Virus record (IMG/VR): IMGVR_UViG_3300037264_002513
Location: 1-61,600 of that record
From: a virus
Taxonomy: Duplodnaviria; Caudoviricetes
Strand: one strand, 5' to 3'
DNA length: 61,600 bases
In this document: piece by piece, positions 6,208 through 28,300 of the stretch
How the letters are laid out: every line of letters begins with the position of its first letter
Numbering within the stretch: position 1 is the stretch's first letter
The notes under the pieces: generated by a model
Told to the model about the DNA's origin: nothing
What the model saw: only the letters and a program-made list of their open reading frames with translations
Databases searched by the model: none
Translations under genes and position numbers: made by a program

Positions 6208-7199
6208 CACGCCCTCCCCGCCAGCGCCTCGGCGGCATGTTTCATGCGGTCCACCGCCTCCGTCACGTCCGCGACGGCTTCGACGAGCACCTCCCGGAGT
6301 TCCTCGGCCTTCACCCCCGGCGCCTCGCACAGGCAGCTGAGGATGCGGAGACGGAAGGCGACCACCTTGTCGAGGTCGGGCAGCACCTCCTGCCGCGCCT
6401 TCTCCCGGCGCTCAGCGGCGAGCTTGGCCTGCTGCGCCGCTTCCTCGCGCCGCAGCCGCTCCTGGCGCTCGCGCTCGACCGCTTCGTTCAGCCGGCGCTG
6501 CTCCTCAAGAGCCTTGCGCTCGGCCTCCAGGCGCGCGGCCTCCGCCCGCTGCTCCGCCGCGATCTTGGCGAGCTCGGCCTCCTTGGCCCGCTGCTGCTCC
6601 GCCTCGAACTGCTGGCGCGCCTTCTCGGCCGCTACCCGCTCGGCCTCCCACACCCGCTGGCGCTCAGCCTCCTCCTGGCGGGCCTTCTCCTGCGCGGCTT
6701 CGAGGGCCTTGCGCTCCTCCGCCAGCTTGGCCCGCTCCTCGGCGAGGCGCTTCTCCTCCGCCTCGCGCTGGGCGCGTGCCTCCGCCTCCTGGGCGGCCCT
6801 ACGCGCGGCGATCTCCTCTTCGAGCGCCTTCACCCTCGCCGCTTCCTCCGCGGCCTTCTGGCGGGCAGCCTCGTCGTCGACCGCCTGCTTCTTAACCCGT
6901 AGCGGATCCTCGATGCCAGCCACGAGCGCGGTGAGGCGCTGGGCCTCGGAGTCGACCAGACGCCCGAACCGGAGTGCGTCCGCCTTCAGCAGCGTTCGGC
7001 GCTTCTCGATCGCCGTGCGGGTCGACCGCAGCTTGCCGATGGCCACCCGGATCTCTTCGTAGCCATCGGGGGTGTCGGCCGACATGGCCGCGCAGACCTC
7101 GCGCATCTGGGCGAGCGCCGCCTCGTTGACATCGTAGACAACGAGCGCCGCGGCGGCATCCGGCACCGGCGTGATGATGAGAGGGGTATCGGCGCTCAT
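6207..7199 (-). CDS. long coiled-coil phage protein
   Basis: E/A/R/K-rich heptads; N-terminal GYEEIRVAIGKLRSTRTAIEKRR; ATGA coupling. Confidence 0.75.
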   Translation of the reverse strand: MSADTPLIITPVPDAAAALVVYDVNEAALAQMREVCAAMSADTPDGYEEIRVAIGKLRSTRTAIEKRRTLLKADALRFGRLVDSEAQRLTALVAGIEDPLRVKKQAVDDEAARQKAAEEAARVKALEEEIAARRAAQEAEARAQREAEEKRLAEERAKLAEERKALEAAQEKARQEEAERQRVWEAERVAAEKARQQFEAEQQRAKEAELAKIAAEQRAEAARLEAERKALEEQRRLNEAVERERQERLRREEAAQQAKLAAERREKARQEVLPDLDKVVAFRLRILSCLCEAPGVKAEELREVLVEAVADVTEAVDRMKHAAEALAGRA

Positions 7200-8725
7200 C
7201 GGCCATGCTCCAGTTCCTCCGGCGCGTAGAGCCCGTGCACTACGTCCGGGTAGACCAAGCGGGCCAGCTTCGCGCTGGCGCGGGCCACGCACATATCGGC
7301 CGGGTTCTTCGCCCAGGCTGAGGCGCTCCAGGCTTTCTGCCGTGCGCCGTCTGAGGGGTTGTCTCCAAACCAGGCCTGTCGGCCCTCGGCGAGGGTGAAG
7401 GTCAGGGCGATCTCAGGATCGCCGACGCGCTTGGTCGCGAAGGTCGCGCGCTCAGCCGTGCGCTCAGTGCAGCGGAAGTACTCCGCCAGACCGGAGCGGA
7501 GCACCATCGCCCGCAGGAGGTCAGCGGACAGCGTCGCCTTGCCTTCGATGATATGCACGGCTCTCACTGACGCGAACACCGTGAGTCCGAGCTCGCGACC
7601 GGCGAGGAAGGTCATCAGAAGGGCCTGCCACGTCGTGTAGGAACCACCCCAGAGCCGCGAATCGAACGCCGCCTGTGCGAGCCAGGTCGCCTGCGTCATC
7701 GTGTTCGGCTCGAACTTACGCTCGAACTCGACATCGACGACGTTGGTCGCTACGCGCGCCAGCTCCGTCGTCGTCGGCAGCGGTGGGAGCGGCTTCAAGA
7801 CGGCTGCGTCGGACACGGGAGGGGCCTCCGGGAACGTGATCGTCAGTTCGCCCCCGTTTGGCGTCTGGACAACCGGCGGCGCGACCGGCGCGCTGGCCTC
7901 CTCCTCCGGTGGCGGCGGCGTGGGCCGGGAGGCCGGCGGCTTCTCGAGCTCCGCGATCGGGAGCTTCACATCGGTGCGAAGCGCGATGAGGGCCCGCACC
8001 AGCGGCAGCCGCAGCTTGAACCCAACCAGGGCCTGGACGATGGCCGGCGTCAGGCCGCGCGCGACGCCGCGGTCGAGGTCCACGTACATGTCGTCGAGCG
8101 ACTTCCAGGCCTTCAGGATCTGCACAGCCCGCACGGGGCCGCAGCCCTTCAGGCCCTGGATGTTGTCCGACGCGTCGCCGACGAGGGCGAGGTAGTCACG
8201 CATCTGGTACGGCATGACCCCGAACTTCTCGAAGGCCGCCGCCTCGTCATAGACTTCGCCCTGCCGCGGCGTCTTGACTTTCACGCGGTCGGTGACCAGC
8301 TGGAGGAGATCCTTGTCGCCCGACACGATGAGGACGGACGTGGTCGGCGGCAGCTGGGCCACCAACGAGGCGATGATGTCGTCCGCTTCGAAGCCGGGGA
8401 CCGCCCACACCGGCCAGCCGTCGGCCCGCAACAGATCCTGCGCGAGCTGCAGCTGGTGGAGCAGTGAGGCATCCTTGTCCCGGCGGTTCGCCTTGTAGCT
8501 GGGGTCCAGCTCGTGGCGGAACGTCTGCCCCGGGGAGTCGCAGCAGACCACCACGCGCCGCTCGCCCTCACCGAGGGCCAGCTGGTGGACCTTTGCCGCC
8601 GTCGCGTTCGCGACGTGGTTGAGCTCGGCGTTGTCCGCCGAGGTCATGTAGATGGGATACAAGATCGAGGAGAGGTCGACGGCCACCACGAGGGGCGGCG
8701 TCTCGGGTACAATAGGTTCTGGCAT
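7196..8725 (-). CDS. 5'-3' exonuclease (PolI-N/FEN-like) fused to RecT/Redbeta-like ssDNA-annealing domain
   Basis: FRHELDPSYKANR, FEADDIIASL, SGDKDLLQL, LVGDASDNIQG (5'-nuclease motifs); Pro-rich linker; C-terminal GRELGL..S...HIIEGK...MCVARA...ARLVYPD..GLYAPEEL. Confidence 0.85.
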   Translation of the reverse strand: MPEPIVPETPPLVVAVDLSSILYPIYMTSADNAELNHVANATAAKVHQLALGEGERRVVVCCDSPGQTFRHELDPSYKANRRDKDASLLHQLQLAQDLLRADGWPVWAVPGFEADDIIASLVAQLPPTTSVLIVSGDKDLLQLVTDRVKVKTPRQGEVYDEAAAFEKFGVMPYQMRDYLALVGDASDNIQGLKGCGPVRAVQILKAWKSLDDMYVDLDRGVARGLTPAIVQALVGFKLRLPLVRALIALRTDVKLPIAELEKPPASRPTPPPPEEEASAPVAPPVVQTPNGGELTITFPEAPPVSDAAVLKPLPPLPTTTELARVATNVVDVEFERKFEPNTMTQATWLAQAAFDSRLWGGSYTTWQALLMTFLAGRELGLTVFASVRAVHIIEGKATLSADLLRAMVLRSGLAEYFRCTERTAERATFATKRVGDPEIALTFTLAEGRQAWFGDNPSDGARQKAWSASAWAKNPADMCVARASAKLARLVYPDVVHGLYAPEELEHGR

Positions 8726-10764: not shown

Positions 10765-11256
10765 CTACACGCTGCTGAGTACCGCGCCCGCTTGCTGCAT
10801 CTTCGTCTCGATGCGGAGGACGCGCGTTTCGAGGTCGGCGACCCGCGCTTCGAGGTCGCCCGTGGGCGGCGGCAGCGGGTCAGGCGGGGGCGTCGTCGTG
10901 CCGGGGTTGATCGGAGCTTTCCACGGTCGCGCTGGGTCGTTCAGGACGCCCTGCGGCTGCCAGGCCGGCGTGGCGGGTCCGTACCGGTTCTCGTCTTCGT
11001 CCCACCCAGCACCGACGAGACAGTCGAAGTGTTCGAGTGTCACCTTGTGCTGGATGATGTCCGCCGCAACGTACGACCCGTCCGACAGGATGCCATAGCT
11101 GCCGGAGGTTTTCGTCGACAGACCCCACCCCTCGGCGCGGTGTATCCAGGCCGCCTCGTTGCAGATCGCCGCGCACTGGCTGGCGGTTGGCCCGAGATCG
11201 CGGTCGTGGGTGTACTTCTTTCGAACGTCCGCCACCGTCTCCTGAATCGTCGCCAT
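10765..11256 (-). CDS. hypothetical protein in lysis region (globular domain + Pro linker + coiled coil)
   Basis: ATG 11256 with AAGGAG RBS; WGLSTKTSG...ADII...FDCLVGAG; C-terminal DLEARVADLETRV. Confidence 0.65.
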   Translation of the reverse strand: MATIQETVADVRKKYTHDRDLGPTASQCAAICNEAAWIHRAEGWGLSTKTSGSYGILSDGSYVAADIIQHKVTLEHFDCLVGAGWDEDENRYGPATPAWQPQGVLNDPARPWKAPINPGTTTPPPDPLPPPTGDLEARVADLETRVLRIETKMQQAGAVLSSV

Positions 11257-11257
11257 G

Positions 11258-11374
11258 TCACTTCTCCTTCGGCGGACGACCGTTCCACCAGCGCCCGCAC
11301 GTTGCACACTCCCAGCGCCGGAGCGCCGGATCGTACTCGATCTGTGCTGTCTCGCCGCAGTGCGGGCACCTCAT
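11258..11374 (-). CDS. Zn-ribbon microprotein (38 aa)
   Basis: MRCPHCGE...WECATCGRWW; ATG abuts upstream TAG. Confidence 0.55.
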   Translation of the reverse strand: MRCPHCGETAQIEYDPALRRWECATCGRWWNGRPPKEK

Positions 11375-11716
11375 CTACTTCTCGCGGCCGATACAGCGGT
11401 TCCAGGCTTCTTCCGGGTTTGGATTCCTACGCGCGTTGTTGAGGCATTCCGCGAGCACGATGCGGTTCGTTTCCTTCGCGGCGGCTAGGATCTGCGCGTC
11501 CAGCATCTCGTCCCGCTGGTAGTGCTTCACTCCTTCGTCCCGCATCTCTTCTATGAGCTTGGCGTGCGCGTCGAGGCGCGTGATGAGGTGCGTACGGTCG
11601 GACCAGACCATGTAGCCCGCAAGGGACCACGCCGCGCCAACCGCCGCGACGAACCGCATCCATGCCGGCAGCCCGCGCGTGCCGTTCCCGCCGTTCTCGA
11701 TGTCGTTCGCCATCAT
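11375..11716 (-). CDS. holin-like single-TM protein
   Basis: GAGGAG RBS; one hydrophobic helix followed by coiled coil; position after tail genes. Confidence 0.5.
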   Translation of the reverse strand: MMANDIENGGNGTRGLPAWMRFVAAVGAAWSLAGYMVWSDRTHLITRLDAHAKLIEEMRDEGVKHYQRDEMLDAQILAAAKETNRIVLAECLNNARRNPNPEEAWNRCIGREK

Positions 11717-11777
11717 CAGACTCCTCGCCGCCAGCGCCGATCCGGTCGGAGGATCGAAACGAAACATGGGATTCTCG

Positions 11778-13055
11778 TCACCTGGTCGCTGTGATGCCGA
11801 CCGCGTGAGACGGGCTGCTCGAGAGAGTCAGCAAGGGTCGATCGAGCCCAGCCCGACGCGCGAGGCCTTCGAGGCCATCGGGCTGGAGGTTGTCGCTGTA
11901 GGCATACAACAGGAGCGTGCGCCACGGCGCGAGGCAGTGTTCGCGCACCACTGCGGCGCGCTCCGGCGGCAGCTCGAGGAGCCGCCCCGGCATCAACAGT
12001 ACTGTGTCGGGGCTCCACTCGGCCCACGGCACATGTCCGATGTCGCCCGTCATCCACTCCCCGCCAGCGAGTCGGATGATGTCAGGCTCGCGCTCCACAC
12101 CCAGCGTCTCGATGGCGCCGACATCCCGCAGGATGCGGTCGAGGAGCATCCCGTTTCCGGCCCCCAGGTCGACGACGCGAGATTGACCCGGCACGAGGCG
12201 GCCCCGCAGGGCGGCGACAATCGCGCGGTGGGCAGCCCGCATCGGCCCGGGGGCCGAAAACCCGTTCTCCGTCCACCACCTGGCATCCGCCGGTCGGTAC
12301 GCGCCATCGCGGGCCAGCCGGTCAGTGTGCAGGGTGTGGTCAGTGCGCGTCGAGATCCGCATGGCCGGCGTCGAGATCCACGCGATGCCGTGCAGCCGGC
12401 TCCACTCCATCGGCCAGGCCAGCATCTCGACCGCCTCGTCCGTTTCCCACCGATAGCCCAGTCGCCTTGCCGCCTTGAGCGCGTCAGAGGCGAGCGCCTT
12501 CGACATCATGCAGGCGGAATCGCAGGGAAGATGTGGGACGAGGCGGACGCCAGCCCATCGCAACCAGATGTTGATGAGGGGTGGCCCAGACGCGCCGGCT
12601 TCGAAGGTGCTGTCGACTTGGCCCTTGCCCCATGTCTGACAGAACGCCCCGCGACAGCACACGGGGTAGCCCAGGAGTTGCCCGACCTTGCCGTCGTCGC
12701 GCACCGCGAGGGCGTTGAGTAGGGCCCGCGCGTTCTCCGGCGCAGCGACGATGACCCGGTATTGCCAAGGCCCGCCAGGCACGAGCGCGCCCTCGCAGGA
12801 CGTGTAAGGCTGCGCTGACACGGGCACCTGGCGCGGCACCACGGCGAGCCCGTGCCGCACGCCCCACTCCGCCAGCGCCGGGAGCTCGTCGGGCGAGCAG
12901 TGCTGGTACGCCGCCTGGCGCACACCATCCACCACCAGTTGGCGCTCGACCTCGAGCCAGGCGCGCCCCCAATCCTGCCGCACCGCTTCCCACCAGGCGC
13001 GAGACGCCTGGTCGCGATACGCGATGCGCGTGAAGTCAGGCAGCTGTGGGCTCAT
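11778..13055 (-). CDS. Cys-motif (DUF483-like) domain fused to class I SAM-dependent methyltransferase
   Basis: GQLLGYPVCCRGAF...RLVPHLPCDSAC in N-domain; VVDLGAGNG..LGVE in C-domain; ATGA overlap with radical SAM gene. Confidence 0.75.
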   Translation of the reverse strand: MSPQLPDFTRIAYRDQASRAWWEAVRQDWGRAWLEVERQLVVDGVRQAAYQHCSPDELPALAEWGVRHGLAVVPRQVPVSAQPYTSCEGALVPGGPWQYRVIVAAPENARALLNALAVRDDGKVGQLLGYPVCCRGAFCQTWGKGQVDSTFEAGASGPPLINIWLRWAGVRLVPHLPCDSACMMSKALASDALKAARRLGYRWETDEAVEMLAWPMEWSRLHGIAWISTPAMRISTRTDHTLHTDRLARDGAYRPADARWWTENGFSAPGPMRAAHRAIVAALRGRLVPGQSRVVDLGAGNGMLLDRILRDVGAIETLGVEREPDIIRLAGGEWMTGDIGHVPWAEWSPDTVLLMPGRLLELPPERAAVVREHCLAPWRTLLLYAYSDNLQPDGLEGLARRAGLDRPLLTLSSSPSHAVGITATR

Positions 13056-14308
13056 CGGCCGGAATCTCCATGACTGTCACCGTGCGGCGAGTCCCCGTGC
13101 CCAGAGTCCCCGTGGCGCGGACGGGTGTGGTCGGTGTGATCGCCGTGGCCGTCGCCGTGGCCGCCATCCCGCGGTGCCCGTCGTGTGCCGCAGCTCGAGC
13201 CCAGCACCGCGTCTGATAGGCGGGGCGTGTCGCCGCGCGCCCACGCTTCGTGCATGTACCGTTCGTAGAGCGCCCGGTGCGGATGCTGAGTCACCGGCAC
13301 GATGCCGGCGCGGCGGAGCCGCCGCTCGCCCTCCGCGTAGAGGTGTTTCCACACCGCGCAGTACGCGTCTTTGTTGCGCCAGTCACCGTCGATGGCCCCG
13401 CCAGGGCACGCCCCGGTGCAACAGATCCAGTAGGGGCAGCCTTGGCAGCCGCCGTGATCTTGCGGGGTGACTTCCAGCGCGAGCTGCCGCTCGTAGGAGT
13501 GGCCGTCGGCGGGGGTCCACGGTCCACCCGTGAGGACGCGTCCGCACATCGAGGGTTCGCCGTCAGGCTCGATGCCGTTGCAGCTGGGCGTATTCCATGG
13601 GTCACAAGACCGATGGTGGCACAGCACATGATCGTCTTGACCCTGCAGGACGCGCAGCACATCGCTGAAGATCGACAGCGTGAGGTCGGGGCTCTCGTCC
13701 TGTAGGGCCCAGAGCGCGTCAAGCACCGACATCAGATCCGAGTCTGGCAAGACAAGCTCAGGGGGGCCGTGCCGCTCAAGTAGGTGCGGGTTGATATGTC
13801 GGATGCCGCGATGGCGGAGGCCACGAACCCACTCGAGGAACCGCGCCACGCGCTCGCTGGTCCCCACGTTCGCCGCAGAGAGCGTGATGATGAACGAGGG
13901 CACCACGCCAGCCTCAAGGAGCGCATCGATCGCCGCCTCGGTCTTTGCCGTCTGCTGCACGCCACATCGGGCGGCGTTGAGGTCGCCAGGGCCGTCGATG
14001 CTGACACCTACCCCGACGCAGTACCGCTGGAAGAGCACGATGTGCGCGGGCGTGATCAAGGTGCCGTTGGTCTGGATGCCGGAGTGCCCGAACTTCTGGT
14101 GACCGTACGCGAAGAACTCCTCGAGCTCAGCCAGCGACGAGAGCAACGGCTCGCCGCCAAACAGATGGAAGCTCCCGCCCAACCGGTCGATCTGCCGGAA
14201 CATCGCGGCCTTGTCGAGCGGGATGCGCTCCCGGCGGTCGTGCTGTTCATAGCAGTACGCGCAGGCGAGGTTACATCGATGCCCGACGAGTTTGATCTCG
14301 ACTGTCAT
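13052..14308 (-). CDS. radical SAM/SPASM-domain peptide/protein maturase with HGD-repeat C-terminal tail
   Basis: CNLACAYC (CxxxCxxC), FGGEPLL, IQTNGTLI, VSIDG; SPASM C..GIEPDGEPSMC and CQGCPYWICCTGAC (Cx2Cx5Cx3C)...YC. Confidence 0.92.
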   Translation of the reverse strand: MTVEIKLVGHRCNLACAYCYEQHDRRERIPLDKAAMFRQIDRLGGSFHLFGGEPLLSSLAELEEFFAYGHQKFGHSGIQTNGTLITPAHIVLFQRYCVGVGVSIDGPGDLNAARCGVQQTAKTEAAIDALLEAGVVPSFIITLSAANVGTSERVARFLEWVRGLRHRGIRHINPHLLERHGPPELVLPDSDLMSVLDALWALQDESPDLTLSIFSDVLRVLQGQDDHVLCHHRSCDPWNTPSCNGIEPDGEPSMCGRVLTGGPWTPADGHSYERQLALEVTPQDHGGCQGCPYWICCTGACPGGAIDGDWRNKDAYCAVWKHLYAEGERRLRRAGIVPVTQHPHRALYERYMHEAWARGDTPRLSDAVLGSSCGTRRAPRDGGHGDGHGDHTDHTRPRHGDSGHGDSPHGDSHGDSGR

Positions 14309-15544
14309 CTACGCTCCTATCAGGCTGGGGTTCGCTACGGCCTCGGCATCGGCGTGGTCGATGTCGGCGTGATCCGTGTCAGCGTGCGTATTCGCGTGGT
14401 CGGCATCGGAGTGGGCAGAGTCGGTGTGGGGCACAAGGTCGCCGTGCGCGTCAGAGTGGGTGTTCTGATGGTCGATATCTCCATGCGCTTCGTCCTGGTA
14501 CAGCTGGTCTTGGTGCAGCGTATCTGCGTGGGTGTTCGAATGCGCGTCGGTGTGCACGTTCAGGTGGTCGCTGTCGAGGTGCTCCTGGTCCACATGGGTC
14601 ACGTCCCCGTGCGTGTTCTGGTGCAGCGTATCAGTGTGGGTGTTGAGGTGCGGCCAGTTTTCGTGGGATACGTCGTCGTGATCAGTGTAGGTGTCGGACC
14701 AGTCATCATGGGTGTTCAGGTGGTCGCTGTCGAGGTGGCCGACGCCCTGGTTGGTATGCTCGTCCTGGTGACCGGAGTCCTCATGGGAGTCCGTCCAGTC
14801 GGTGTAGTCCGCGTAGTTCCCATGGAGGACATCCTCGTGGATGTTGGTGTGCCCATCGAGGTGATCGGTGTGGTCCGTATAGAGCTTCCCCCCGCCCAGA
14901 TCGATGTAGCCCACGTTCGCCCAGTCTCCGTACGTGTCCTGATGCTCAAACACCGGAGGCGTGTCGGTGTGCGTGTTCGTATGGGTGTCGGTGTGGTCGC
15001 GGTCAGCGTGGGGGACATTGGTGTGCACCGCATCCGTCCACGCGCTATACGTGTCAGCGTGGAGGACGTTGGCATGGCTCTGGTCCTGGTGCTGCGTGTC
15101 GACGTGTTCGGCATCCGTGTGGCTGGCATCACTATGGGCGTCGCTGTAGATGTCTCCATGTTCGATGTCAGCGTGCGCGACGTTTCCATGGGTATTCTCA
15201 TGGACGTTATCTTGATGGTCGACGTTGCCGTGCGCCACATCCTGGTGACCCCAGAACTCCTCGTGGTCGCTCTCCGCCAGCCAGTGCAGCTGCGCGCCCT
15301 CGATCCAGAGGGATCCCGCCGCGCCCGCTGGGGTGCCCAGCGAGGGGCCGTAGGCTCTGTATTCGTTTGAGGCGCTCTCGTTGATCCAGTGGAGGTAGTC
15401 GCCCTCGATCCAGAGGCTCCCCGGGGCCGCCGTCGCGACCGCCGCAGCGACCCATTCCCCAGCCAGTCGCCACTCGATGCGGGAGGCGTCGATGTAGTGG
15501 AGGTTGTTCCCCTCCACCCAAAGGGAGCCGGGGCGTTTCGCCAC
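14309..15544 (-). CDS. H/Y/W-x-D/N repeat protein; putative radical-SAM substrate and virion fibre
   Basis: Three N-terminal GSLW(V/I)EGxxLH(Y/W) repeats, then ~65 aromatic-X-Asp/Asn tripeptides; start and stop abut both neighbours with 0-bp gaps. Confidence 0.85.
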   Translation of the reverse strand: MAKRPGSLWVEGNNLHYIDASRIEWRLAGEWVAAAVATAAPGSLWIEGDYLHWINESASNEYRAYGPSLGTPAGAAGSLWIEGAQLHWLAESDHEEFWGHQDVAHGNVDHQDNVHENTHGNVAHADIEHGDIYSDAHSDASHTDAEHVDTQHQDQSHANVLHADTYSAWTDAVHTNVPHADRDHTDTHTNTHTDTPPVFEHQDTYGDWANVGYIDLGGGKLYTDHTDHLDGHTNIHEDVLHGNYADYTDWTDSHEDSGHQDEHTNQGVGHLDSDHLNTHDDWSDTYTDHDDVSHENWPHLNTHTDTLHQNTHGDVTHVDQEHLDSDHLNVHTDAHSNTHADTLHQDQLYQDEAHGDIDHQNTHSDAHGDLVPHTDSAHSDADHANTHADTDHADIDHADAEAVANPSLIGA

Positions 15545-16366
15545 TTAGATCTCCGCGTACTTGTCCGCACCAACAGGAATCACAAGGCGGTTGCCCGCGT
15601 TGGACAGCCGCACGATCGGCGACCGCGCAAACTGCGTCGCCGACGTGGCCATCAGCATGTCTCCCGCCGCTTGCCCGACCAACGCCAGGCCCCCGGCGCG
15701 CACGGCCGCGATCTCGACGTTCGTCGGCTGCACCACGAGGCTCGAACTCAAGTCCGCGACGCCCACCAGCCGCCGATACGTGGGCGCGGTCGACGTGATG
15801 GCCCCCACCGTCGCGGAGACATAATACGCCACCCCGGGACTCAGTCCAACAAACCCCGTGACACGCCCTTGGAGCCGAACGGCCCCCGTCGCTGCAGAGG
15901 CGATAGCCGTCGGCGCCAGGCCCACCATCCCCGCCTCGCTCGAGCTCGCCAGCACATCCGCATCGGCACGGTACCACCGCCCCGCCGTCGTGCCGCCCGC
16001 CCCCGCACTGAGATAGACGACATCGCGCGCGGCGATGGCCTCACCGGCAATTCCCTCGATGTCCACGTTCGCGTCCCACGAGGCCGGCGCGATCAGGTTG
16101 TCTTGCGTCCGCAACACCACATCGTTGGCGTTCGCGAAGATGAGCTTGTAGCTGGTCGGGAGCCAGAACATGACGCACCGGCCGGCGGCGTCGCAGATCA
16201 CGGGGTTCGGGTTCGGGATCGTCCCCGCCGCATCTGAGTACGTCGGCAACGCGTTGGCGGGCCAGGTGCCGCCCGCCGACAGCGTGTAGATACGCGCCCC
16301 AGCGATCGTGTTGCCGTTGCTGTCAAGCGCCGTGAACCACGGCGAGGGGGCGACCATGAGCTGCAT
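15545..16366 (-). CDS. tail spike/fibre adaptor with P22 tailspike head-binding-like N-terminal domain
   Basis: DSNGNTIAGARIYT..AG...TYSD..GT.PNPNPV.CDAAGR...YKLI...RTQDN; no catalytic spike domain follows. Confidence 0.7.
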   Translation of the reverse strand: MQLMVAPSPWFTALDSNGNTIAGARIYTLSAGGTWPANALPTYSDAAGTIPNPNPVICDAAGRCVMFWLPTSYKLIFANANDVVLRTQDNLIAPASWDANVDIEGIAGEAIAARDVVYLSAGAGGTTAGRWYRADADVLASSSEAGMVGLAPTAIASAATGAVRLQGRVTGFVGLSPGVAYYVSATVGAITSTAPTYRRLVGVADLSSSLVVQPTNVEIAAVRAGGLALVGQAAGDMLMATSATQFARSPIVRLSNAGNRLVIPVGADKYAEI

Positions 16367-19300
16367 CAGCGTCCTCCTTCAGCTGCCGGCTCCGCAGCCC
16401 GCGTAAGCCGGGGTTTCGTCACCCACCCGTGCATCGTCGAGGGCACCTTCACCAGCAACCCCGGGCTGACCGGCGGGTGCCGCTCGGGCAACGACGCCTC
16501 GCCGTTGGCGTAGCGAGCCATGTCGATCACGGCATCGTACAGGCGGTCGTAGATCTCGCGCTTCTCAGCAGGCGTGAGGTCAAACCGCTGGCGCACGAGG
16601 CGGATCTGCTGGGTCACGAGCCGAATCTGAGCATCCGCCCGACGCAGCCCGCTCAATTCCTGCGCGGCCTTGGCGTTCTTGGTGAGAAGGGCTTGTGCCT
16701 TGGGAATCTGGCCCTCCCGCACATACCGATTGACCATGCGCGAGTACTGCTCGAGCGACGCCTTCCGCTGCCGGAACCGTTCCAGGCTGGTCGCCTGTCC
16801 CGTCGCCTTCTGCCCGACAAACGCGCCGATGCCAGGCACGTCACGGAGCCCGCGCGAGGCCGACGGCGGCGCCCAGCCCGCCTTTTCCTCCGCCTTCGAG
16901 ACGAGGCTGGAGATGAATTGGCCGGTCGCCGAGGTGTAGCCGTAGATGATGTGGTCGAGCATCGCCGGCGCCAACCCGATGGCCGGTCCAACCTGCTTCG
17001 AGAATGTCGAGGTCCACTGTGAGTACTGCTGCTCCAGCGGGAGGTCGAGGTCGAACGGGCTGACAATCGGCCGCTTGCGGAACGTGTCGTAGTTCGCCGC
17101 CGCTTCCAGCACCGGCAAGACGGCTGTTGGAGCCAGCGCCAGGAACGCCTTGAGGAGGTCCGCGTCGCCGACGCCGGCAAACGGCAACCGCTGGATCGCT
17201 TCGGGGTCGTTGTCGACCGCCCAATCCAGGTAGGTTTCGAGCACGTTGCCGATATCGCCCACATCGAAGGGTCGAGGGATGCGGACCCACCCGCCTCGCC
17301 CATTCGGGATGTGCCAGAAGGCCGCGCGCTCCCATCCCGCCAGCTCGCGGTATTCGGGATCTTCGCGGTTCAGGAGCCACAACAACAGCCCCGGCAGGAG
17401 CCCATAGAGGAACGCCTTGAAGGCGTAGGCCGCGCGCTTGTCGGGGTCGCCCAACTCGGTGGCGATGCGCGTCCACCCGCCGATCCTCGCGCCGAGGAAG
17501 GCTTCGTAGCGGTTGTAGCGCCGCACGACAGACCCCATCTTGGCGAAGTCCTGCGTGGACTCACGCGCGGTAAACGCGGCGCGGGCTTCCCGCTCGGCCC
17601 CACCGATGCCCTGCGCGGCCAGCTTCTTCTCGGTTTCGCGGAAAGCCTGGAGGCGCGTGGCGTTGTCGCTCAGCTCGGCCAGGGCCCGCAGCCCCTCGAA
17701 CGGATTGAACACGGTCTTGTCGAGGGTGCGGCGGAGGCGGCCGTGCTGGAACTTCTTGATTTCGTTCTTCGCGTAGTCCCGGTCGACCGCAACGATGCTC
17801 GCCTGGGCCGCCTTTGCGGCACGGAACCGCTGCCAGGACTCATCGTTCTTGATGATCAGGCCCGCCGCCGCCAGCGTCTTCAGGAACGAGTGATGATAGG
17901 CGGCCTTCGTTTTGGCGTCGATGGTGTCGCGGATCGGGTTCCGCATCGCGAAGGACAGCGTTGAGGTCGCCGCGCGGCGCAGCAACGATGCCGCGCCCAC
18001 CGCGAACTTGGTGATCCAGTTCCGCGGCTGCTGCGGCTGCGCGTTGACGAGCAGCTCCCAGATCGCGTCATCGTGGACTTCGTACCATTCCCGCTTGCCG
18101 TCACGCAGGACCGTCACAATACGGGCGTCGCCCTGCGCGATGATAGCCGGCGTGAACACCGTGACCAGCGCATCGAACTCGATGTCGTTGGGAATCTCCT
18201 CGCCGACCGTAACCCCGTTCGCCGCGAGCACCGCGAGGATGGCCGACCGGACCCGATCCAGGTTGAACCGCGTCGCCACCTGTTTCATGCTGACCCGCTC
18301 GAGGAAGCGCGCGCCGCCCTCGTCGTGGATCAGGTCCACCAGTTTCAGCCTGGCGGTGTTTTCCTCGACCGTCCGCACGAAGGTAAACGTGTTCTTGATG
18401 GAGGTCACGATCGGGTCGACGATCCGGCGGGCGCTACCCGTGCGGGCCTTGATGGCCTGCGGCGTGTTCTGCTTCTTCGTCCCAGGCCCCCGGAAGGCCG
18501 CGTCGGCCGCGTCCATGACCCGCTCCCACGGCACGTAGCGGGTATTGCGCGCCCGCATCGCTTCCGCCGAGTCACGCGACAGGTAGTCGTGCTCCACCGC
18601 CCACTGGAGCAGCGTGTCCCAGTAGGCCGTCACCCGCTCGGCCGCGGTGACGAATCGCTCCGGCACCTCGGCCGCCATTGCAGCCTCGACCGTCGATGGT
18701 CGGATCCCCGTCTCGAGGCCCTGTTCGTGGTACTCCTGCGCACGGCGCGCCACGAGATAGGCCACGAACGGTCTGTAGTCCTTTCGGTTGAGCACCTCCC
18801 TGACGGCCGTGAGGAACCCCGGCCCCATGATGGTGCCGTCCGCGCGCCGAATATGGTCTTCGAGAAAGGTTTGCGCCTCGCCCGAAGTGCCGGCCAACGT
18901 GCGGAACGCCACGTAGGCGCTGCTGCCGTAGTCCTTGACCGGCAACCCCTTCTCCATCGCCTGTTCCACGCGCAGGATCGGCAGGTTGTCGTCGTTCAGC
19001 GCGTCGTTGAGCTTCTGGAGGGCATCCCTGGGGTCTGACGTGGTGCCCAGCACCCAGTCGCGGAAGCGGCTCCACCGGCCAGGCTCGCCGTTCCAGTCGA
19101 TGCGCTCCTCGAGCTCCTGTTCCGGCGTCATCGCCAGAAGGCCCTGAATCTGGGCCTGCTGCTCGCGGAAGAAGGCCCCGAGGGCCTTGTCCGAGTTGAG
19201 ATACGCCTCGAACAGGGCGGTAAACGCCGGGGCCTGCGTCGCCGCGGCCTCGGGCTCGGTGAACCAGAGGCGGAGGTATTCGGCCGCGCCTTCCTTCCGC

Positions 19301-22300
19301 TTGTACTGGCGGTCTTTCAGCTTGCTCGGCGGCGTCGTCACCTCGCCGAGGGCTTCGAGCTCGACGGCCACCGCCCGGTTGGCGCCCGCGGCGCGCGCCG
19401 GCCGGATCTGCATCACGGCCTTGTCGACGTGGTGTCCCAGCTCGTGCAGGATGACCTGGAGATCCTTCGACACCTTCGTACGAATCGCCCACACATCCGG
19501 CTTGTAGATGCCGCCGGCGCGCTGCTGGAACCGCCGCACGCTCATGGGCACGTCGGCAAAGAACTTCTGGAACGCGGCCAGGATCTCGTCCCGGTTCATC
19601 TGGGGCCCCGCCGGCCCGGGGGCGGAGGCACGCGTCGGCAACGCTGACCGGGCTGGCAAGGGCATCATGTGGCGCCGCGGGGCCCCGCCGCCCATCGGCA
19701 TCGCGTCCTCGTCGTCCTCGTCGCTCGGGGGTTCCTCGGCTGCTGGCTCCCGACCCGGCGTCTCAGGCGCTTCGTCCTGCCCAACCGACACGCGCAGCCG
19801 GCGCACCTCAGCCTCCAGGGCCTCGAGCTCCGCATCTTGGCCGAACTGCTTACCGAGCACTTCGAGGTGGCCCTTACGGTCCTCAGCCCACTGCGCCAGG
19901 CTCTTGCGGGAGAACCCGCCGAGCTTCTCCAGGGCCTCTCGCTTGGTGTGCGCGTCGAGGCTCCGGCGGTAGTCGGGCGGCACCTTCTCATCCCACTCGG
20001 GCAGCGAGGCGAACGGCAGCACCGTGCGGAGCGGCCCCCGGCGCTTCTCGCCGATCGTCGTGTCGTTCGAGAGGAACAGCTGCGGCGCCTGGATCTGAAT
20101 CCGGTCGGTGGTCGGTTCGCCGTTGACGACCTTGAACTCGTCGCGGCCGTAGGCCTGGATGACCAGCACATAGGGGCCGACGCGGCCCACGACCACGGGA
20201 TCGCTTCGATAGCTGGCGTAGCCGCTCTGCAGGATCGCCTCGAGCTTGGCCTGGAACGCCTTGCGCGCGTCCGTATCCTTCAGGTCGAAGGTCAGCGGCG
20301 TGTCCAGTTCCTCTAGGTAGAACCGTGACGGGTTGTGCGTGATGATGGCCGTCGGCTTCTTGGCCCACTCGTCCAGCACCGCGAGGTCCGCGTCGTTCTG
20401 CGCGATGCGCTCCTCGTCGCGCTTGGCCTCGGCGTCGCCGGAGTCGATCGCCCGACGGGCCTTGCGCTGCCGCTGCAGAAAGTTGACCCGCCGGCCGCGA
20501 AGCGACCTCAGCTCCCGGTCCTTGTGGACGAGCGTGAGGGCGTCGGGATTGCCGCTCGCCAGCGCCGCGGCCGTCTTCTGATCCATCTGCGCCGGGTCGA
20601 GGTCTTCCATGCTGTCGAGCTCGCCGCGATAGAACTTCGTCAGAAAGTCCTGTTTGGTGGCCAGAAGGCCCCAGCGGTATTCCTCGAACGAGCCCTTCGT
20701 GACGTACCGGACGATCTCGACCTCCTTGTTGGTGTTGCCCTGCCGGATGCCCCGCGCTTCCTGCTGCTCCAGCCAGTCTGGCCGCCAGGGCGCGTCGAGC
20801 TCATGCACCGCCACCACGCGGGTCTGCACGTTCATGCCCGTGCCCATCTTGGCGCCCGTGCCGATGAGCACCCGGACGCGACCTTCGCGCACCGCCCGGA
20901 AGAGCCGGATCTTGTCGCCTGGCTCGGGCGCCTGGTGAATGAACGCGATTTCCTGGGGCTTGATGCCCTTGGCGATGAGCTTCCGTTTCAGATCCTTGTA
21001 GAGGTCACGGCCGGTTTCGAGCGAGGCGACGGCGTCGAGCACGGTCTGTTCCTCTTCCTCGTCCGTCACGATCTCGCCCTGATCCTCGTCGACTACCATC
21101 TTGTCGGCGTCGTCGAACGCCTCGACTCTTTGCCCTCCGAGGTTGAGCGGTTCCACCGTGCGCGGAGCCCCGGCGTTGAGGAAGACGAGCTGCGTGCCCA
21201 GGTCGTCCTGGGACGCCCGGTAGATGTCCGCGATCTTGTCAGCCGCCGCCACCAGCCGGCCCTGCGGGTTCTCCGGCGCCTCCGGGTCAATGAGGCGCAT
21301 GTCGATCGCTTCGAGGCTGGCCTGCGTGTAGATCTTGAGGTGGTTGTCGTCCTTCGGGTCGACCTTCCCACCCTTCAGGGCCTCCAGGCGATCCCGAATC
21401 TCGGCCATGAACTCTTCGTGTCCGGGCGGCGGGGGCGTGGTGATGACCGTCGGGCGGCCGTTCTTGATCGCCGGCAGCGTCACCACGGGCGTCCCGTCGG
21501 GGTTCTTCGCCTCAATGAGTTGCTGCGTCGTGAAGACATCCGCGAAGCGCCAGAAGAGGCCCGTGAGCTCGCGCAGGTTCACCCAGTACCGCAACCGTGT
21601 CCGCTCCTTGTAGCCGCCCCCCGGCTTCGGCTCGCTCTCCGGCGCGGCCACCGCGAAGGCATTGGCCCAGGCGTCGAACCCGGCCATCCCGACATCAGCG
21701 AGCTGCGGTTGCGCGAGATAGCGGAAGACGGTGTAGACCTCGCTCATGGTGTTCGTGACCGGCGTGCCCGTCATGAACACGAGATTACGACTCTTCGACT
21801 GCTCGTTCAGGTAGCGGGCCTTCAAGAACATATCCATCGACCGTGCGGCGTCGCTGCCCTTGAGCCCGACGATGTCGTTCTTCCCGGTCGAGAAGTAGAG
21901 GTTCTTGAACATGTGGGCTTCGTCGACAATCAGCCCATCCACGCCGAGCTCCTCGAAGGTGACCGGCGAGCTCTTCTTCTGCTGGTCGAGGCGCTTCCGC
22001 AGCCGCGCCCGCAGATTCAGGATGGCGCGGACGATGTCCTTCACGCTGGCCGTCGTGCCACGCCCGAACAGCCCTTTCTTCCCAGCCTCCTTCGCGTCGA
22101 CCTGATCCTTGAAGTCCTCCCGCGACACGTCCGCCTGTTCGGCGCCGTTGGCGATGAGTTCGTCTTCCTGCTGCTGAATGAACGCCTTGAGCGTCGCCAG
22201 CTTGACGGAAATCCGCAGGTACTGTGACTGCGCCATCACGATCGCGTCCCAGTCCTGGTTGGTGATACGGGCGATGAGCTCCTGGCGCCGGTCTTTCTGG

Positions 22301-25300
22301 AAATCGCTCTCATCGGGCACCAGCACGCGGGCGCCGGGGTAGACGTACTGGAAGTCTGCCCGCCACTGTTCAACCAGGTGGTTCGGGACCACGATCATCG
22401 GCTTGCGGGCGAGCCCGAGGCGCTTCCATTCTCCGGCAATCGCGATGCCGGCGAACGTCTTGCCGGCGCCCACCGCGTGGGCGATCATCGTGTTTCCGCC
22501 CTGGAGCGTGCGCCAGACCACGTTCTTCTGCCACGGGTGCCACCGCAGCTCGGGGTTGGCCCCGACGATCAGTATCCGCGAGCCGTCGAACTTCCTGGGC
22601 ACCTCGCGATTCAGCAGGGCGTTGTAGATGTTCGTCAGCGTCTCGGCGGCCTTGTCGTTGTTCTTCCACCACAAGGCCCACTGTTCGCGGAGCTGCTTCA
22701 AGGACTCCCGGTACTGGTCGGTTTTCTCCTGGCTGAAGATCTTGATCGTCTCGCCATCGACCTTTTCCTCGTTGTAGATGCGCGGGAGCCTGTTGTTCAA
22801 CGCCTCGTAGGCCCACTCGACGAAGTTCGTCCCTTCGGGCATGAACTCATGCGTCCCCCCGAAGCCGTCGACGTGGAACTCCGTCCGATGCTCGTTGTTC
22901 GAGAGCTTCACGGTGAGGCTGCTCGTGTTTCCCACGGCACGCAAGAAGGACTCATAGATGTCGTCGGGCACCCACGTCGCCCCGAACGGCGCCTCGAAGG
23001 TTTCCGGCGTCTTCGGCGCCGGCTGGACCTTCTCTAGGGCCTCGACGTTCGGCTTGAACGCGGGGTCGAGCTCGGCCGCGAACTGCGCCTGCTCCAGCTT
23101 CGTAACCACGTCCCCGGAGAGATATTCCTCGCGCGTGACCCAGACCTTCGTTTTCGGCTCGAAGAAGAGCTCGCCGGTGAGGCCCTTGGTCACGGCATCG
23201 GGCGTGCTCTCGAGCAAGCCGGCCATGTATTCGAGGTCGACGTGCCCCTTCCAGGCCAGGCTTTGCACGAGGGCGTCTTGTGGCGAGGCGGCCTTCGTGG
23301 GCTCCTCGACCTTGTCCACGACGCGCTTCGAGAAGATGTCGGCGAGGCCGATGAAGTCGACGACGCGCTTCTTCCGCCCGCTGGCGTCCTTCTCGCTGTA
23401 GGTTTCCGTGACCTCCAGCGTGATGATGCGCGACGCGTTCGGGTCGGCCTTGATCGCCCGCTTGTTCTCGGTCAGCGCGATACGCCCGAACCCGGCCACG
23501 AACGCCTCGTAGGTCTTGCGGAGCTCGGCCTGCGCGGCCTTCAGCGTGGCATCGTCCTGTCCGGTGGTCATCGCGTCGAGGACGACCTGGTAGGCGTCGC
23601 GCAGCGGGATGAACGCCTTGACGCGCGCAGCGGTCTTGCCGGTCAGCGGCACCCGCTCGGTCGTCCCGTTGTTGTAGACGGCGATGTGCTTACCGTCCAT
23701 GACGTAGGAGCCGTTCTTCGAGTCGAGCGGAACGTCCTTCGCGAACTTCCGCCGGTCAGGCCGCAGCGTGGCCTTGTAGGTGTTCTTCGGGAAGCTGTCC
23801 ACGACGCGCGCCAGGTCGTCAGGCGTCATCACCCCGGTGACGTTGTAGCCGGTCGCGCGGTAGTTCATCTTCCCGCTGCGGTCCTCCTCGCCAAGGATGT
23901 TCTCAGGATGCGCGACGAAGTACTCGTTCGTGTGGATGAACTCGTCGCGGCCTTTGTCCTCGTTCCACTCCTTACCCAGATCCTCGCGCTTGACCGACTC
24001 GATCCACCCCGGGATGCCCTGCGCGAGCGTGGCGCCAGGCTCCTTCTTCTGGAGCACGATCACGTCCGTCACGACCTCGGTGCCCGCGGTTGTCTTGAAC
24101 GCGGACGAGGGCATCCTGAACGCGCCCAGGAAATGCGCGCGGTCAGCGATGTAGGCTCGTACGGAGTCGTTCTGGCTATCCATCGTGTAGCGCGACGTGA
24201 CGAAGATCACGAGCCCGCCAGGTCGAACGGCGTCAAGAGCCTTGCCGAAGTAGTAGTTGTGAATCGACCGCGTCATCAGCGCGCGCGCGGGCGACACGAA
24301 GGCCGGGTCGAACACCTCAACCTTGCCGAACGGCACGTTCGAGATCACGAAGTCGTAGAACTCGTCGGGCACGCGGGCCTCTTCCAGGGGGCTGGCCTGG
24401 ACGATGGCGCCCTGGTAGAGCTGCTGCGCGATGGCCGCGGCGACCGGCTCCTTGTCGACGCCGAAGAGGACCGTCCGCGGGTGTTCCACGATGGCGGGCG
24501 GCATGGTCCCGAAGAAGTGGCCGGTCCCGATGGCCGGCTCGAGGATGCGCCCGCCCTTGAACCCCAACCGCTCGGCCAGGCTCCACAGCGCCCGCGGAAT
24601 GTCGGAGAACGAGTAGTGCGCGTTGATGACCGATTCGCCGAGATCCTTGAGCTCCGCTGGCGTGAGCAGCCGTTCGAGCTCTTCGCGGGCCTTGCCGAGC
24701 CGGGGGTCTTTCCCGGCAAGGTCGGCCGCCTTCTTCGAGGCGACGACCGGGGCGAGGTTGGTGTGCCCCCAGCCGATGTACTTGGCGAGGACGGCCTGCT
24801 CGTCGGCGGTCGCGGGGCGCTTCTGCGCGTCGAGTTGCTTGAGCAACCGGAGCGCCGCCATGTTGTTTTCGAGTTTGCCGATCCAGCTTCCGCCGGTGGT
24901 CAGCTCTTCGACATCGCTGATACGGAAGTGCTTGGGCCGCTCGCCGCGCGCGTGGGCGGTGACCACGTTCGGATCGTCGACATCGTCGGCGGTGTCCACA
25001 TCGCTGGCATCACCAGCTCGCTCACCTGGGCTGGGCTGGCGCCCTCCCCCAACATCAGCGCCTCCTCGCCGAGGGCCGCGTCGACCGCCTCGCGGACGGC
25101 CTGCTCCACCTTCAGCTTGCCCTCCGGCTGCTGGTGCAGCTTCCGCAGCGGCGGGCTGTTCGCCAGCCACACCTTCAGCACCTTCAGCTCGAGGCCCTCC
25201 AGGGGGTTGACCGGTGACACCGGCTTCGACGGCTGGCCTTCCTCGTACACCCGCTCCCGTGGTAGACGCTGCATCGGTGCCTTCTTCCTGTACTGTCGGC

Positions 25301-28300
25301 TCCGCCGGCAGGGTTGTCAAGACCTGGTGCGTGGACACCTCCTCGGCCTCGGGGTGGAGCAGGCTCCAGCCGGCGTCGAGGTAGATGGCCATCCGTTCCA
25401 CGGTCGGTCGGCCCAGCTGGTCGATCGCCTGCCGAACGGCCTCCCCGAACTCGTTGATGCCCTTGCGCGCGTAGACGCCCAGCAATTGCACGGCGAGCCC
25501 CGCCATCTCGGGGTCGATGCCGACGTTGAGCTGGTTCATCTTGGCGCGGATCTTCGCCAGGATGGCGGCTTCCTCGGCGTCGAGGGCGGCCTTGGTCGCC
25601 TCGTACTTCGTCGGAGCGGCCTTCGTCTGAGCCGTGGTCGGCGGCTTGAACTCGGCCGGCTTGGCGGGTTCCTCCGCCTTCTCGAAGTCGATGCGCTGCT
25701 GCCCCGCGGCCTCGAGGGCGTCCCGGCGCAGCCTGGTGATGGCTCGGTCGAGCTCGGTGCTCGGCTCCAGCTCGACGCCGAGGTGACCCTCGAGGAGCGC
25801 CGAGGCGAAGCTGAGCTCGTCCTGCGTCATCACGTCCACCGCGGCGTGGTAGGCGCGGACGTACGAGTGCCCGAGCACGTCGATGATGATCTGGCCCTCG
25901 GCCTCAAGCAGCTCGCGGCCCTTCTGGCTGGTCGCGTCGGCGTTCTTGTCCCAGGACTCGATGTGCGTCAGGAGGTCGTGCAGGGCCTCATTGGTGGCGC
26001 TGTCGTAGACGAGCGTGTTCTCGCGCCAGCCGAGCTCGGCCTCCATGGAAGCGAGGTCGTCCTGCTCGTACTTGGTCAGCCCAACATTCGTCTGCGAGTT
26101 CAAGAGTCCCTTGATGTCATCCTCGAGGCCCTTGTCGCTCGTCTCGAAGTGCTCGAAGTTCGGTCGGGTGGAGGCGGGGGAGGGGACGTGCTTGGCCACC
26201 GGGGCCTTGGACTCTTCCTCTTCCCGGCTTACCGTCGGTTCGATGCGCTCGAGGCCCGAGAGGTTTGTCCACTTCCCGTAGGTCTTCGTCGAGTCGAGCA
26301 TGAGCCGGGCCGCTGGCGGGTCTTCGGTGCGGATCTGCGTGATGATGCCGCTTCCCTCGAACCCGGTGACATGGTCCCCGACCTTGAACCCGCCGACCTC
26401 CGTAACCTCCGTCTTCACGCCCTCGCGGGTCGGGATAATCGTCGCCTTCGTGAAGGTGACCGCTGGCGCCTCGGCCTTCGTTTCCTGGCGCGTAACGTCG
26501 CGGGCATCCACCCCCATCGCCAGCCCGTCGGCGTCCCTCAGTGTGAGCAGGTCGCCCCTTCTAGCCGGCTTACCAACCGTGTAGGGTTTCCCGTTGTAGG
26601 TGACGGCATCGCCAGGCTCGAACTGGTCAGCCGCAGCCCCCTTGCTGATGATCTGGTCGATGGCAGGGCCGCGTTCTACCGGCGCCGTCTCCGTCTTCCT
26701 CGGCCGCTGCACGCCCGTCACGTTGTAGACCGTGTCCTCCACGCCAGGGCCAGGCTTGTGATACCAGACCTTCGACGGCGGGCTCCAGCGCCAGCCGGCC
26801 TTCTTGAGGCCGTCGAGGACGTTCGGCGCCGGCTTGCCAGGGAACTTCAGCTCGTAGTTCCCGGCCACCGTGCGGCGGACGCCGGCCTTCGGCCCCTCGT
26901 ACCAGGTGCCGTCCGAGGCCAACATGCCGGTCGACGTGGGCGGAGGGGCGGAAGAAGGAGCCGAGGGGGCTACTTCTTCCGTGACAGACGCCTCCGCGTT
27001 TGTGAGCTGGCCCGGGAGCAGCTCATAGAGCGCCTGTCCACCTGGACTGTTTCTCGTGTGTACGTCGCGGACGCGGACGCGGACCCACTTCCCGGCGACA
27101 CCCACGACCTCGCCAGTGCGAGTGTAGGAGGCTTCGCCAGGCCGCTGGTCAATCACCGACTTGAACGTAACCCGCGTGCCAACTGCGAACTCAGCAGGCT
27201 TGACCGGCGCTGGCTCTTCGGCCTCGGCCACCTCCGCTGGCGCTTCGCCACCGACCACGCGGATCTGATGCGGTTTTGCCCGCATCGTTTCTCGATACGA
27301 TCTGGCCCCTGGCGGCCACATGGGCTGCATCACCAGCGACGGGTGCTGGACCTTCGTGCGGCCCTCGGCGTCGGTGTCCTCGAGCACGTCGGTTTTCTTC
27401 CACTCGCCGTCGAAGTCGAGGACTTCAACCTCCTGGCCCTTCGTGAATCTCCCGGGTTCGCCGGCAGGAGTGGTCGGCTCGGCTACTTCTTCTGCGGCGG
27501 GGCCTTCGGCTTGACGTGCTGCGGGAGGTGCTTCGGGAGCTCGTACTCCCGGTCCCACCGCGCCGCGATCTTCGGGTGCTTCGCGTGCATCAGGCGGAGC
27601 TGCGCTAGGCTCTTGTACGGCATCGGGTTTCTCCTGCGGGACGACATCGGGCGGCAGCAGCCCCGCCTCCTGCATCCGGCGCTTCATCTCGGCCTTGGCG
27701 GCGGCCTTCTCCTCGGCGGTCGGGGGCTCGGCCGCCGGTGGGCCAGGCGTAGCAGCGACGGGCGGAGCGACCGCCGCGGAGGAGGGCGGCGGGGGTGGGC
27801 TCGGCGGCGCGGCCGCGGGGCCACGCGGAGGCTGCTGCTGGCGGCCAGCGGGCGGAACGTGCAGCTCCCGGCCGACCATCGGGACCGGCTCGGGACCGGG
27901 CTCTCGCGGGGGCCGTCCAGACGTGGCGAGCTCGGCAAGCCCTCTGACGGTCCCAGGAACGGCGAACGCCGCGGCCTCCACCACAAGCTGCCGGCCGAAC
28001 TCGCGCATCGCCTGCGCCCGCGCAGACTCCCCATGGACCGTTTCTGCCGTCGGCTCGCCCGTGACCATGCGAAGCATCGCCGGCTGCGGCTGACCTGGCT
28101 CGCGCAGGTAGGGCTGGGCGGCGCGCATCACCTCGCCGACCCGCTCCTCGAACATCTCGCCGATGATGCCGTTCCAACCCGACTTCGTCCGCACCTGGTC
28201 GAAGAAGTCGCGGACGCCCCGATCCGGGTGCAGCTGCAGCCAGCGCGAGAGCACGGCCTCCTTGAGCGCCACGATGCGGTTGGCGACCGGGAGTTTGGCG

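Follow-up and report, generated by a model that had tools for sequence, protein, structure and literature searches.

A phage late-operon protein with 65 aromatic-x-Asp/Asn triplets as the putative substrate of an adjoining radical SAM/SPASM enzyme

The window analysed in this work is the whole of a 61.6 kb virus record (IMGVR_UViG_3300037264_002513), whose completeness is 100% according to CheckV. A gene on its minus strand (14309..15544, GTG start) was found to encode a 411 amino acid (aa) protein, of which residues 100–399 (14348..15247, exact mapping) hold 65 tripeptides of the form [HYWF]-x-[DN], here called the array. The next gene encodes a radical S-adenosylmethionine (rSAM) enzyme with a SPASM-type set of cysteines. 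The best explanation as a whole, to which we give a probability of about 0.55, is that the rSAM enzyme encoded by the phage itself has the array as its substrate and would staple the triplets into cyclophanes. From the sequences, we judge the array to be genuine, conserved and out of the ordinary, and it probably represents chemistry of a known kind in a place that is new for it, a protein of a phage late operon.

Results

The array in the 411-aa protein

Counting showed that 53 of the 65 tripeptides begin with His, eight with Tyr and four with Trp, which reproduces exactly the numbers given in an earlier note on this DNA. The same note had stated that every His of this stretch has Asp or Asn at +2. 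This is the case for 53/53, and it is far from what composition would give: in 10,000 permutations of the array's own 300 residues, the number of His followed by D/N at +2 had a mean of 13.4 (sd 2.9) and a maximum of 25. The rule was also obeyed by 8/9 Tyr and 4/5 Trp, with the single Phe (0/1) not conforming, while for non-aromatic residue types the share with D/N at +2 was never above 14%. The rule is broken by the remaining His of the protein (H16, H52, H87, and H94), which all lie in the N-terminal domain. The His motifs divide into 36 HxD and 17 HxN, and Ser never occupies the +2 position in the 411-aa protein. The array is very acidic, with 67 D+E vs 2 K+R.

The start-to-start spacing of the motifs was 5 residues in 31 cases, 4 in 20, 3 in eight, 6 in one, and 7 and 9 in two cases each. 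Spacers of 0–2 residues, described in the note as the prevailing kind, thus account for 59/64. At the DNA level, the reported 24-nt exact duplicate (14558-14581 and 14714-14737, both coding HLDSDHLN) does exist, and no longer exact repeat occurs in the array DNA. The remaining array DNA contains only degenerate repeats of 60–85% identity and three short tandem rows of 2.2–3.1 copies.

Homologues of the array protein

A total of 110 metagenomic homologues were collected, none of which bears a function name, and 105 of them contain at least 10 motifs. Among 2,790 array His in the family, 2,728 have D/N at +2 (D 2,621; N 107), and only seven have Ser there. The DNA of the array does not look like a product of slippage, yet the rule holds in these 105/110 homologues, which agrees with the proposal that the pattern is kept at the protein level and not by slippage. 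Family-wide, the frequency of D/N at +2 is 0.978 for H, 0.384 for F, 0.285 for Y, and 0.190 for W, followed by 0.176 for R and by values of at most 0.111 for all others. A spacing of 5 residues is found in 1,105 of ~2,840 cases; spacings of 3, 4, and 5 are freely mixed, without a fixed period.

In the family, the array is a C-terminal module of variable length, closed by a Pro-containing cap. Several different modules precede it: three GSLWVEG-LHYID units as in this phage, an extension added at the N-terminus, an insert of the LamG type, MG2 domains, or a domain of ~430 residues. PHROGs gave nothing informative for eight modular relatives of the array protein.

This phage differs from the rest of the family in its position-3 Asn, which makes up 32% of His motifs (17/53) vs 3.9% family-wide, and it has 12 Tyr/Trp motifs in addition. 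Its array is the most degenerate natural array among those examined. This degeneracy would be the best sequence argument that selection keeps a ring and a Cβ, and not metal ligands.

N-terminal domain, C-terminal cap and predicted structure

Residues 1–99 (15248..15544) consist of three copies of a ~35-residue unit with the core GSLW[VI]EG-x2-LH[YW][IL], which corresponds to DNA repeat family D5. An AlphaFold model of the array protein was built with 82 sequences. In this model, residues 1–100 form a confident all-beta domain with strands (predicted local distance difference test, pLDDT, 84–96), whereas residues 101–400 have a pLDDT of 41–51 and no secondary structure. Confidence comes back in the last ten residues (pLDDT 74–90), with a strand at 407–410. 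These belong to the C-terminal 12 residues (14312..14347) that make up the cap; Pro406 in it is invariant in 16 sequences and present in at least 90% of the 82, and the family consensus of the cap is QPTxVGP. The array is therefore predicted to be without a fold of its own, and we infer from the model that the small beta domain anchors it as a long loop or tail.

The model had no PDB fold match at E≤0.001 (best 0.066), and the ESM Atlas offered no usable match. No family in PHROGs, Pfam, NCBIfam, or PADLOC was assigned to the protein. A beta-solenoid, which the earlier note had named as the prediction that would speak against its interpretation, did not appear over residues 101–400, and no regular fibre of the beta-solenoid or pentapeptide type is indicated by the mixed spacings of 3, 4, and 5 residues.

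Linkage of the array and the enzyme

A scan of viral contigs with a single rSAM sequence gave no loci; an alignment-based scan then worked. The viral scan was anchored on the N-terminal repeat of the array protein, and it yielded 39 loci, of which 31 bear an array, seven are array-less, and one is too truncated. An rSAM homologue (32–41% identity) lies 0–800 nt downstream of the array gene in 29/31 array-bearing loci; one of these 29 genes runs off its contig after 57 residues. In the other two loci, the contigs end within 186 nt past the array gene. The array-less relatives, which have at most two motifs, showed an rSAM gene in 0/7 cases within 10-kb flanks. The co-occurrence with rSAM/SPASM genes that had been anticipated was thus found, and homologues that commonly lack such a partner, which would have told against it, are not what the phage loci contain. 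The partner gene described below is present in 24/29 viral loci with array and rSAM. Four of the five loci without it end at or within ~500 nt of the rSAM gene, while the fifth (L036) has room for a partner and contains none.

A second scan, anchored on the enzyme, covered prokaryotic genomes and gave 30 loci at the family level, from many bacterial phyla and two archaeal lineages. In 19/30, an adjoining open reading frame (ORF) was found with at least six motifs that hold most of its His. Three of the 30 have short motif clusters only, two are truncated, and six have none. Among 50 loci with distant rSAMs from the same scan, an array ORF was found in 0/50. The linkage of array and enzyme is thus shown to be near-obligate.

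Both archaeal lineages have array ORFs beside the enzyme, with 19/25 His conforming in a Nanohaloarchaea metagenome-assembled genome (L068) and 40/42 in Halorubellus litoreus (L070), and therefore the system crosses domains. Beside bacterial homologues of the enzyme, candidate substrates with short motif clusters were seen in small signal-peptide-like ORFs of L066 (8166-8477, plus strand; FID-HFD-FGD) and L067 (8244-8537, plus strand; three motifs, HND-HLD-HVD), and at the end of a 1179-aa protein in L049 (2458-5994, plus strand). The array-less enzyme loci are L046, L056, L061, L063, L064, and L072. L046 is cyanobacterial and recalls the deazapurine context that passages of PMC11437467 describe.

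The radical SAM/SPASM enzyme

The rSAM enzyme (13052..14308, minus strand, 418 aa) has the CX3CX2C motif at C12/C16/C19 and matches Pfam Radical_SAM at 1.6e-13. Eight further Cys (C230, C235, C255, C288, C291, C297, C301, and C317) are invariant in 56 sequences. They form a SPASM-type set that includes CX2CX5CX3C at 288–301, although the enzyme was not matched by the Pfam SPASM model itself. The enzyme therefore has the rSAM core with SPASM auxiliary-cluster cysteines that is found in triceptide systems. Its family comprises 252 clusters at 50% identity (E≤1e-30).

The nearest NCBIfam model among the matches listed was that of the cyclophane-forming AmcB (2e-17), and anaerobic sulfatase maturase (anSME) was second. 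DynA, PapB, YhhB, GrrM/OscB, and XyeB were also listed; all are peptide maturases and all were matched far under their cut-offs. The bit scores against cut-offs were 63.2/425 for AmcB, 57.3/450 for DynA, 45.5/445 for YhhB, 44.8/310 for GrrM/OscB, and 33.6/450 for XyeB. Membership of the anSME family (TIGR03942) was not indicated either, with 60.1 bits vs 349.45. When a profile of the 56 sequences was compared with solved structures, anSME came first (2.3e-19, positions 3–349), followed by the triceptide synthase ChlB (6.4e-16). anSME abstracts a Cβ hydrogen on a protein substrate, and its product is formylglycine. It shares the SPASM architecture with our enzyme and is its best full-length solved relative (PDB 4K36), but its substrate motif and product differ. 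The PADLOC matches of the enzyme were set aside as generic viperin-type core matches.

The enzyme ends in seven His-x-Asp motifs of its own (7/8 His; 13055..13165). Such a tail, with at least three motifs, is found in 24/27 complete rSAM homologues from phage loci (within L002-L033), and likewise in Cumys_12 and phiLo_142 of the Thermus phages discussed below. We guess that the tail is a built-in substrate mimic or a tether. Many metagenomic rSAM homologues have long HGD tails (e.g. P0112, P0113, P0124, P0128, and P0142), and HGD is the prevailing motif in the tails of the family. A complex prediction run without controls, with rSAM residues 1–385, the DUF483 domain (residues 1–262) of the partner, three 4Fe-4S clusters, and array residues 340–411, gave a score of 0.00 and a mark of 0.32, which speaks neither for nor against a complex.

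The DUF483-methyltransferase partner

The third gene (11778..13055, minus strand, 425 aa) encodes a protein with a DUF483-like domain and a class-I SAM methyltransferase domain. An invariant CC...H..C...C is present in the N-terminal, DUF483-like domain. Matches to DUF483 were obtained for 17/22 partner homologues and matches to Methyltransf_25 for 15/22; the window's own partner scores 17 bits vs a DUF483 cut-off of 25. Its AlphaFold model (pLDDT 87) matched only methyltransferases in a fold search, via the C-terminal half (best PrmA, 5e-6), and no match was found for the DUF483 half. The methyltransferase half is absent in L021, L027, Cumys_11, and phiLo_141, and this domain is therefore dispensable. 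Fusion proteins of rSAM and DUF483 exist among the homologues, as passages of PMC11437467 state too, and so the partner is tied to the enzyme.

Cultured Thermus phages with the same module

The Thermus phages phiMa, Cumys, and phiLo have the rSAM enzyme at 39.5–40.8% identity (tblastn 1e-76 to 4e-78), and phiMa and Cumys have the array protein at ~33% identity (tblastn 9e-23 to 9e-29). In Cumys_13, 54/54 His obey the rule. The Cumys genome has baseplate and tail-collar-fibre genes, then Cumys_13 (array), Cumys_12 (rSAM), and Cumys_11 (DUF483), which matches the three genes here in kind and order. Unlike the partner here, the Thermus partners are without a methyltransferase domain, and the array here is richer in Asn (17/53) and in Tyr/Trp motifs (12) than those of the Thermus phages. 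In the jumbo phage phiLo, at least five array ORFs were seen (L123-L130, ~142.5–147.4 kb; e.g. 104/109, 75/78, and 58/62 His), which lie on the opposite strand within ~9 kb of the phiLo rSAM-DUF483 pair.

The three-gene rSAM module of Cumys and phiMa has been published (Viruses 2024, PMC11437467). Passages of that paper call two of the module proteins unknown and make no mention of His-x-Asp repeats, and they place cyanobacterial homologues beside deazapurine genes. A literature search for phage His-x-Asp arrays, supplements aside, turned up only this Thermus phage paper. The connection of the published module to His-x-Asp repeats is new here with respect to the passages of PMC11437467.

Gene order and neighbouring genes

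The genes of the window are almost all on the minus strand, and large terminase, portal, scaffold, major head, and head-closure genes are among them. The GTG start of the array gene stands directly after the stop of an upstream late gene of 273 aa (15545..16366, minus strand), which is without a known family match and is given for context only. The rSAM gene starts immediately after the stop of the array gene, and the ATG of the partner overlaps the rSAM stop by 4 nt. The ORF at 14309..15544 is a real gene whose N-terminus aligns with homologues. An ORF on the plus strand (13784..15370, 528 aa, Val/Gly-rich) was rejected as a gene and taken as a shadow of the repeat codons. No match was found in phage records when window positions 11000-17000 were searched by blastn.

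The second gene upstream of the array gene (16366-29817, minus strand) encodes a giant 'polyvalent' protein of 4483 aa, which contains an LPD38 domain (4.9e-28) as well as helicase motifs of the SNF2/ResIII type. Elsewhere on the minus strand, a possible adhesin or tail protein of 1374 aa (42008-46132) has FG-GAP repeats and, at its C-terminus, an ASPIC/UnbV domain, and a single 509-aa ORF (7196-8725) joins an exonuclease N-terminal part to a RecT-like annealing C-terminal part.

Discussion

Proposed modification of the array

On the grounds of sequence, the array is very probably modified by the rSAM enzyme. The three genes would be coupled in translation and make up a single cassette that closes the late (structural) operon, and the rSAM enzyme would act together with its DUF483-methyltransferase partner on the 300-residue array. 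We propose that the enzyme may take a hydrogen from the Cβ of each Asp or Asn, and that the resulting radical may add to the aromatic ring two positions upstream, at C2 in the case of His. Each triplet would thereby become a three-residue cyclophane, as in triceptides. With some 65 such staples, the flexible acidic chain would stiffen into an appendage that would withstand proteases and heat, be anchored on a small beta domain and display ordered imidazole/carboxylate pairs. By analogy with the triceptides, the odds that the modification would be an aromatic-to-Cβ link are about even.

One staple per triplet is proposed because the degeneracy of the motif matches, and because published triceptide enzymes cover each of its elements. 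In passages of PMC11002830 and PMC11499958, OscB joins Trp to the Cβ of Asn or Asp and Phe to the Cβ of Asn; YxdB joins Tyr-C3 to Asp-Cβ; HaaB, YhhB, and HtkB join His-C2 to the Cβ of Ala, Arg, and Lys, respectively; and the His-modifying enzymes tolerate Phe, Trp, or Tyr in place of His. Phe is no metal ligand and Asn is a poor one, and both occur in motif positions; this fits ring-plus-Cβ chemistry and not a metal site. A stapled His/Asp pair could well act as a metal binder.

From gene position only, we infer that the array protein is part of the virion. More tentatively, and with somewhat less than even odds, the phage may make a part of its particle from an unfoldable 300-residue chain that its own rSAM enzyme turns into ~65 cyclophane rings. 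This would give a covalently rigid fibre tip, proof against heat and proteases, that binds metal or the host surface via imidazole/carboxylate pairs, with the rSAM tail as substrate mimic or tether.

Comparison with known rSAM peptide systems

The triceptide systems (XncB, OscB, MscB, YxdB, HaaB, YhhB, HtkB, and ChlB) act on Omega1-X2-X3 motifs, with an aromatic residue at position 1 and a reactive Cβ at position 3, as here. They share with the array Asp/Asn at position 3 (OscB and YxdB), His joined via C2 (HaaB, YhhB, and HtkB), the tolerance of other aromatics, several motifs per substrate, and an rSAM enzyme with a SPASM domain. A co-encoded substrate with aromatic-X-X motifs is present here as well, with 65 motifs and an adjoining enzyme in 29/31 viral loci. 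However, the substrate here is a 411-aa protein with a folded domain besides its 65 motifs, whereas the triceptide substrate is a short leader-core peptide. Unlike in triceptide systems, the cassette here is encoded by a phage, in a late operon, with a DUF483 partner and an enzyme that has its own motif tail. The cassette genes gave no match to a protease or transporter family in NCBIfam, Pfam, or PHROGs.

The HXS antiphage system is the nearest repeat system. Passages of PMC13128918 describe HxsA with His-x-Ser repeats, each of which is required, matured by the rSAM enzymes HxsB/HxsC together with HxsD, and call the exact chemistry unresolved. In both cases, a protein and not a small peptide has repeats of His-x-small residue that need a dedicated rSAM. 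The HXS protein has five repeats, with Ser at +2 and basic surroundings, while the array has 65 with Asp/Asn in a very acidic context. HXS uses two rSAMs and HxsD, is host-encoded, and makes a periplasmic product against phage; here there is one rSAM with DUF483, encoded by the phage itself. The array has no His-x-Ser, and no Hxs model was among the best 25 of 50 NCBIfam matches of the single rSAM enzyme. The terms cyclophane, crosslink, SPASM, and HxD are absent from PMC13128918.

Evidence against stapling and alternative explanations

Several points weigh against cyclophane stapling of the array. A His-to-Asp link was not found in the triceptide literature (passages of PMC11002830 and PMC11499958). 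The enzyme does not reach the cut-off of any curated cyclophane-synthase family, and its best full-length structural relative is anSME (PDB 4K36), which performs a Cβ chemistry of another kind. The change reported for HxsA in passages of PMC13128918 is +8 Da ('+C/-4H') at one site, not the -2 Da of a cyclophane. The authors of PMC11437467 propose, in passages of that paper, DNA modification for the Thermus module. Among untruncated bacterial loci, 6/28 have the enzyme and no array ORF within 6 kb. The interchange of His, Tyr, and Trp that had been noted in this phage stands family-wide, since H, F, Y, and W rank top, but with the caveats that Trp (0.19) is not clearly above Arg (0.176) and that aromatic replacements are rare outside this phage (222 vs 2,728 His motifs in the family). 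Virion membership is suggested by gene order only, and PHROGs and Pfam gave no structural family for the array protein, nor did PHROGs for its modular relatives.

The strongest alternative, which we regard as distinctly less likely though serious, is that the rSAM enzyme modifies the array by other chemistry: an oxidation or hydroxylation of Asp/Asn at Cβ (anSME-like), an epimerisation, a methylation or methylene bridging with the methyltransferase, or a link from a His nitrogen to carbon. The rank of anSME as best full-length PDB relative (2.3e-19, positions 3–349) and second NCBIfam match is in its favour, as are the curated cyclophane cut-offs that the enzyme does not reach and the +8 Da of HXS (passages of PMC13128918). 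A SAM methyltransferase domain is moreover fused to the partner in 15/22 loci, but this domain is dispensable, as mentioned above. Such chemistry does not in itself account for the need of an aromatic residue, Phe included, exactly two positions before each Asp/Asn.

It is improbable that the array is an unmodified disordered appendage, metal-binding through His/Asp or electrostatic, with the rSAM module acting elsewhere, e.g. on phage DNA. His/Asp-rich acidic sequences commonly bind divalent metals, and the charge of the array (D+E 67 vs K+R 2) suits such a role. The DNA modification and the deazapurine neighbours in passages of PMC11437467 point in the same direction, as do the 6/28 untruncated bacterial loci without an array nearby, L046 included. 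However, array and enzyme occur together almost perfectly, in both directions, and the rSAM enzyme carries its own His-x-Asp tail in 24/27 phage homologues. The enzyme is also of the peptide-modifying SPASM group, and the poor ligands Phe and Asn sit in phase at motif positions.

Phage fibre proteins are often repetitive and a spacing of 5 residues is the commonest both here (31/64) and in the family (1,105/~2,840), but it is very unlikely that a regular fibrous fold (beta-solenoid, collagen-like, or pentapeptide-type) explains the periodicity with the enzyme as a mere neighbour, given that there is no fixed period, that residues 101–400 have a pLDDT of 41–51 without secondary structure, that array length varies widely between homologues, and that the strict linkage to the enzyme would be left unexplained.

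Significance

What the window contributes is a complete genome, together with the strongest argument from sequence that the aromatic residues are equivalent, as are Asp and Asn. Stapling of the array by the rSAM enzyme is directly testable with Cumys, phiMa, and phiLo, which are in culture. If this explanation is true, it would be the first carbon-carbon stapling of a virion protein of the type known from ribosomally synthesised and post-translationally modified peptides, with far more links than in any known polypeptide. The array would be a natural scaffold with dozens of identical macrocycles, made by an enzyme that is processive on a whole protein. The peptide chemistry of rSAM enzymes would then extend beyond small secreted natural products to a structural protein material, with the machinery carried by viruses. 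It would also offer a new explanation of why phage appendages withstand heat and proteases, the cultured carriers being phages that infect Thermus.

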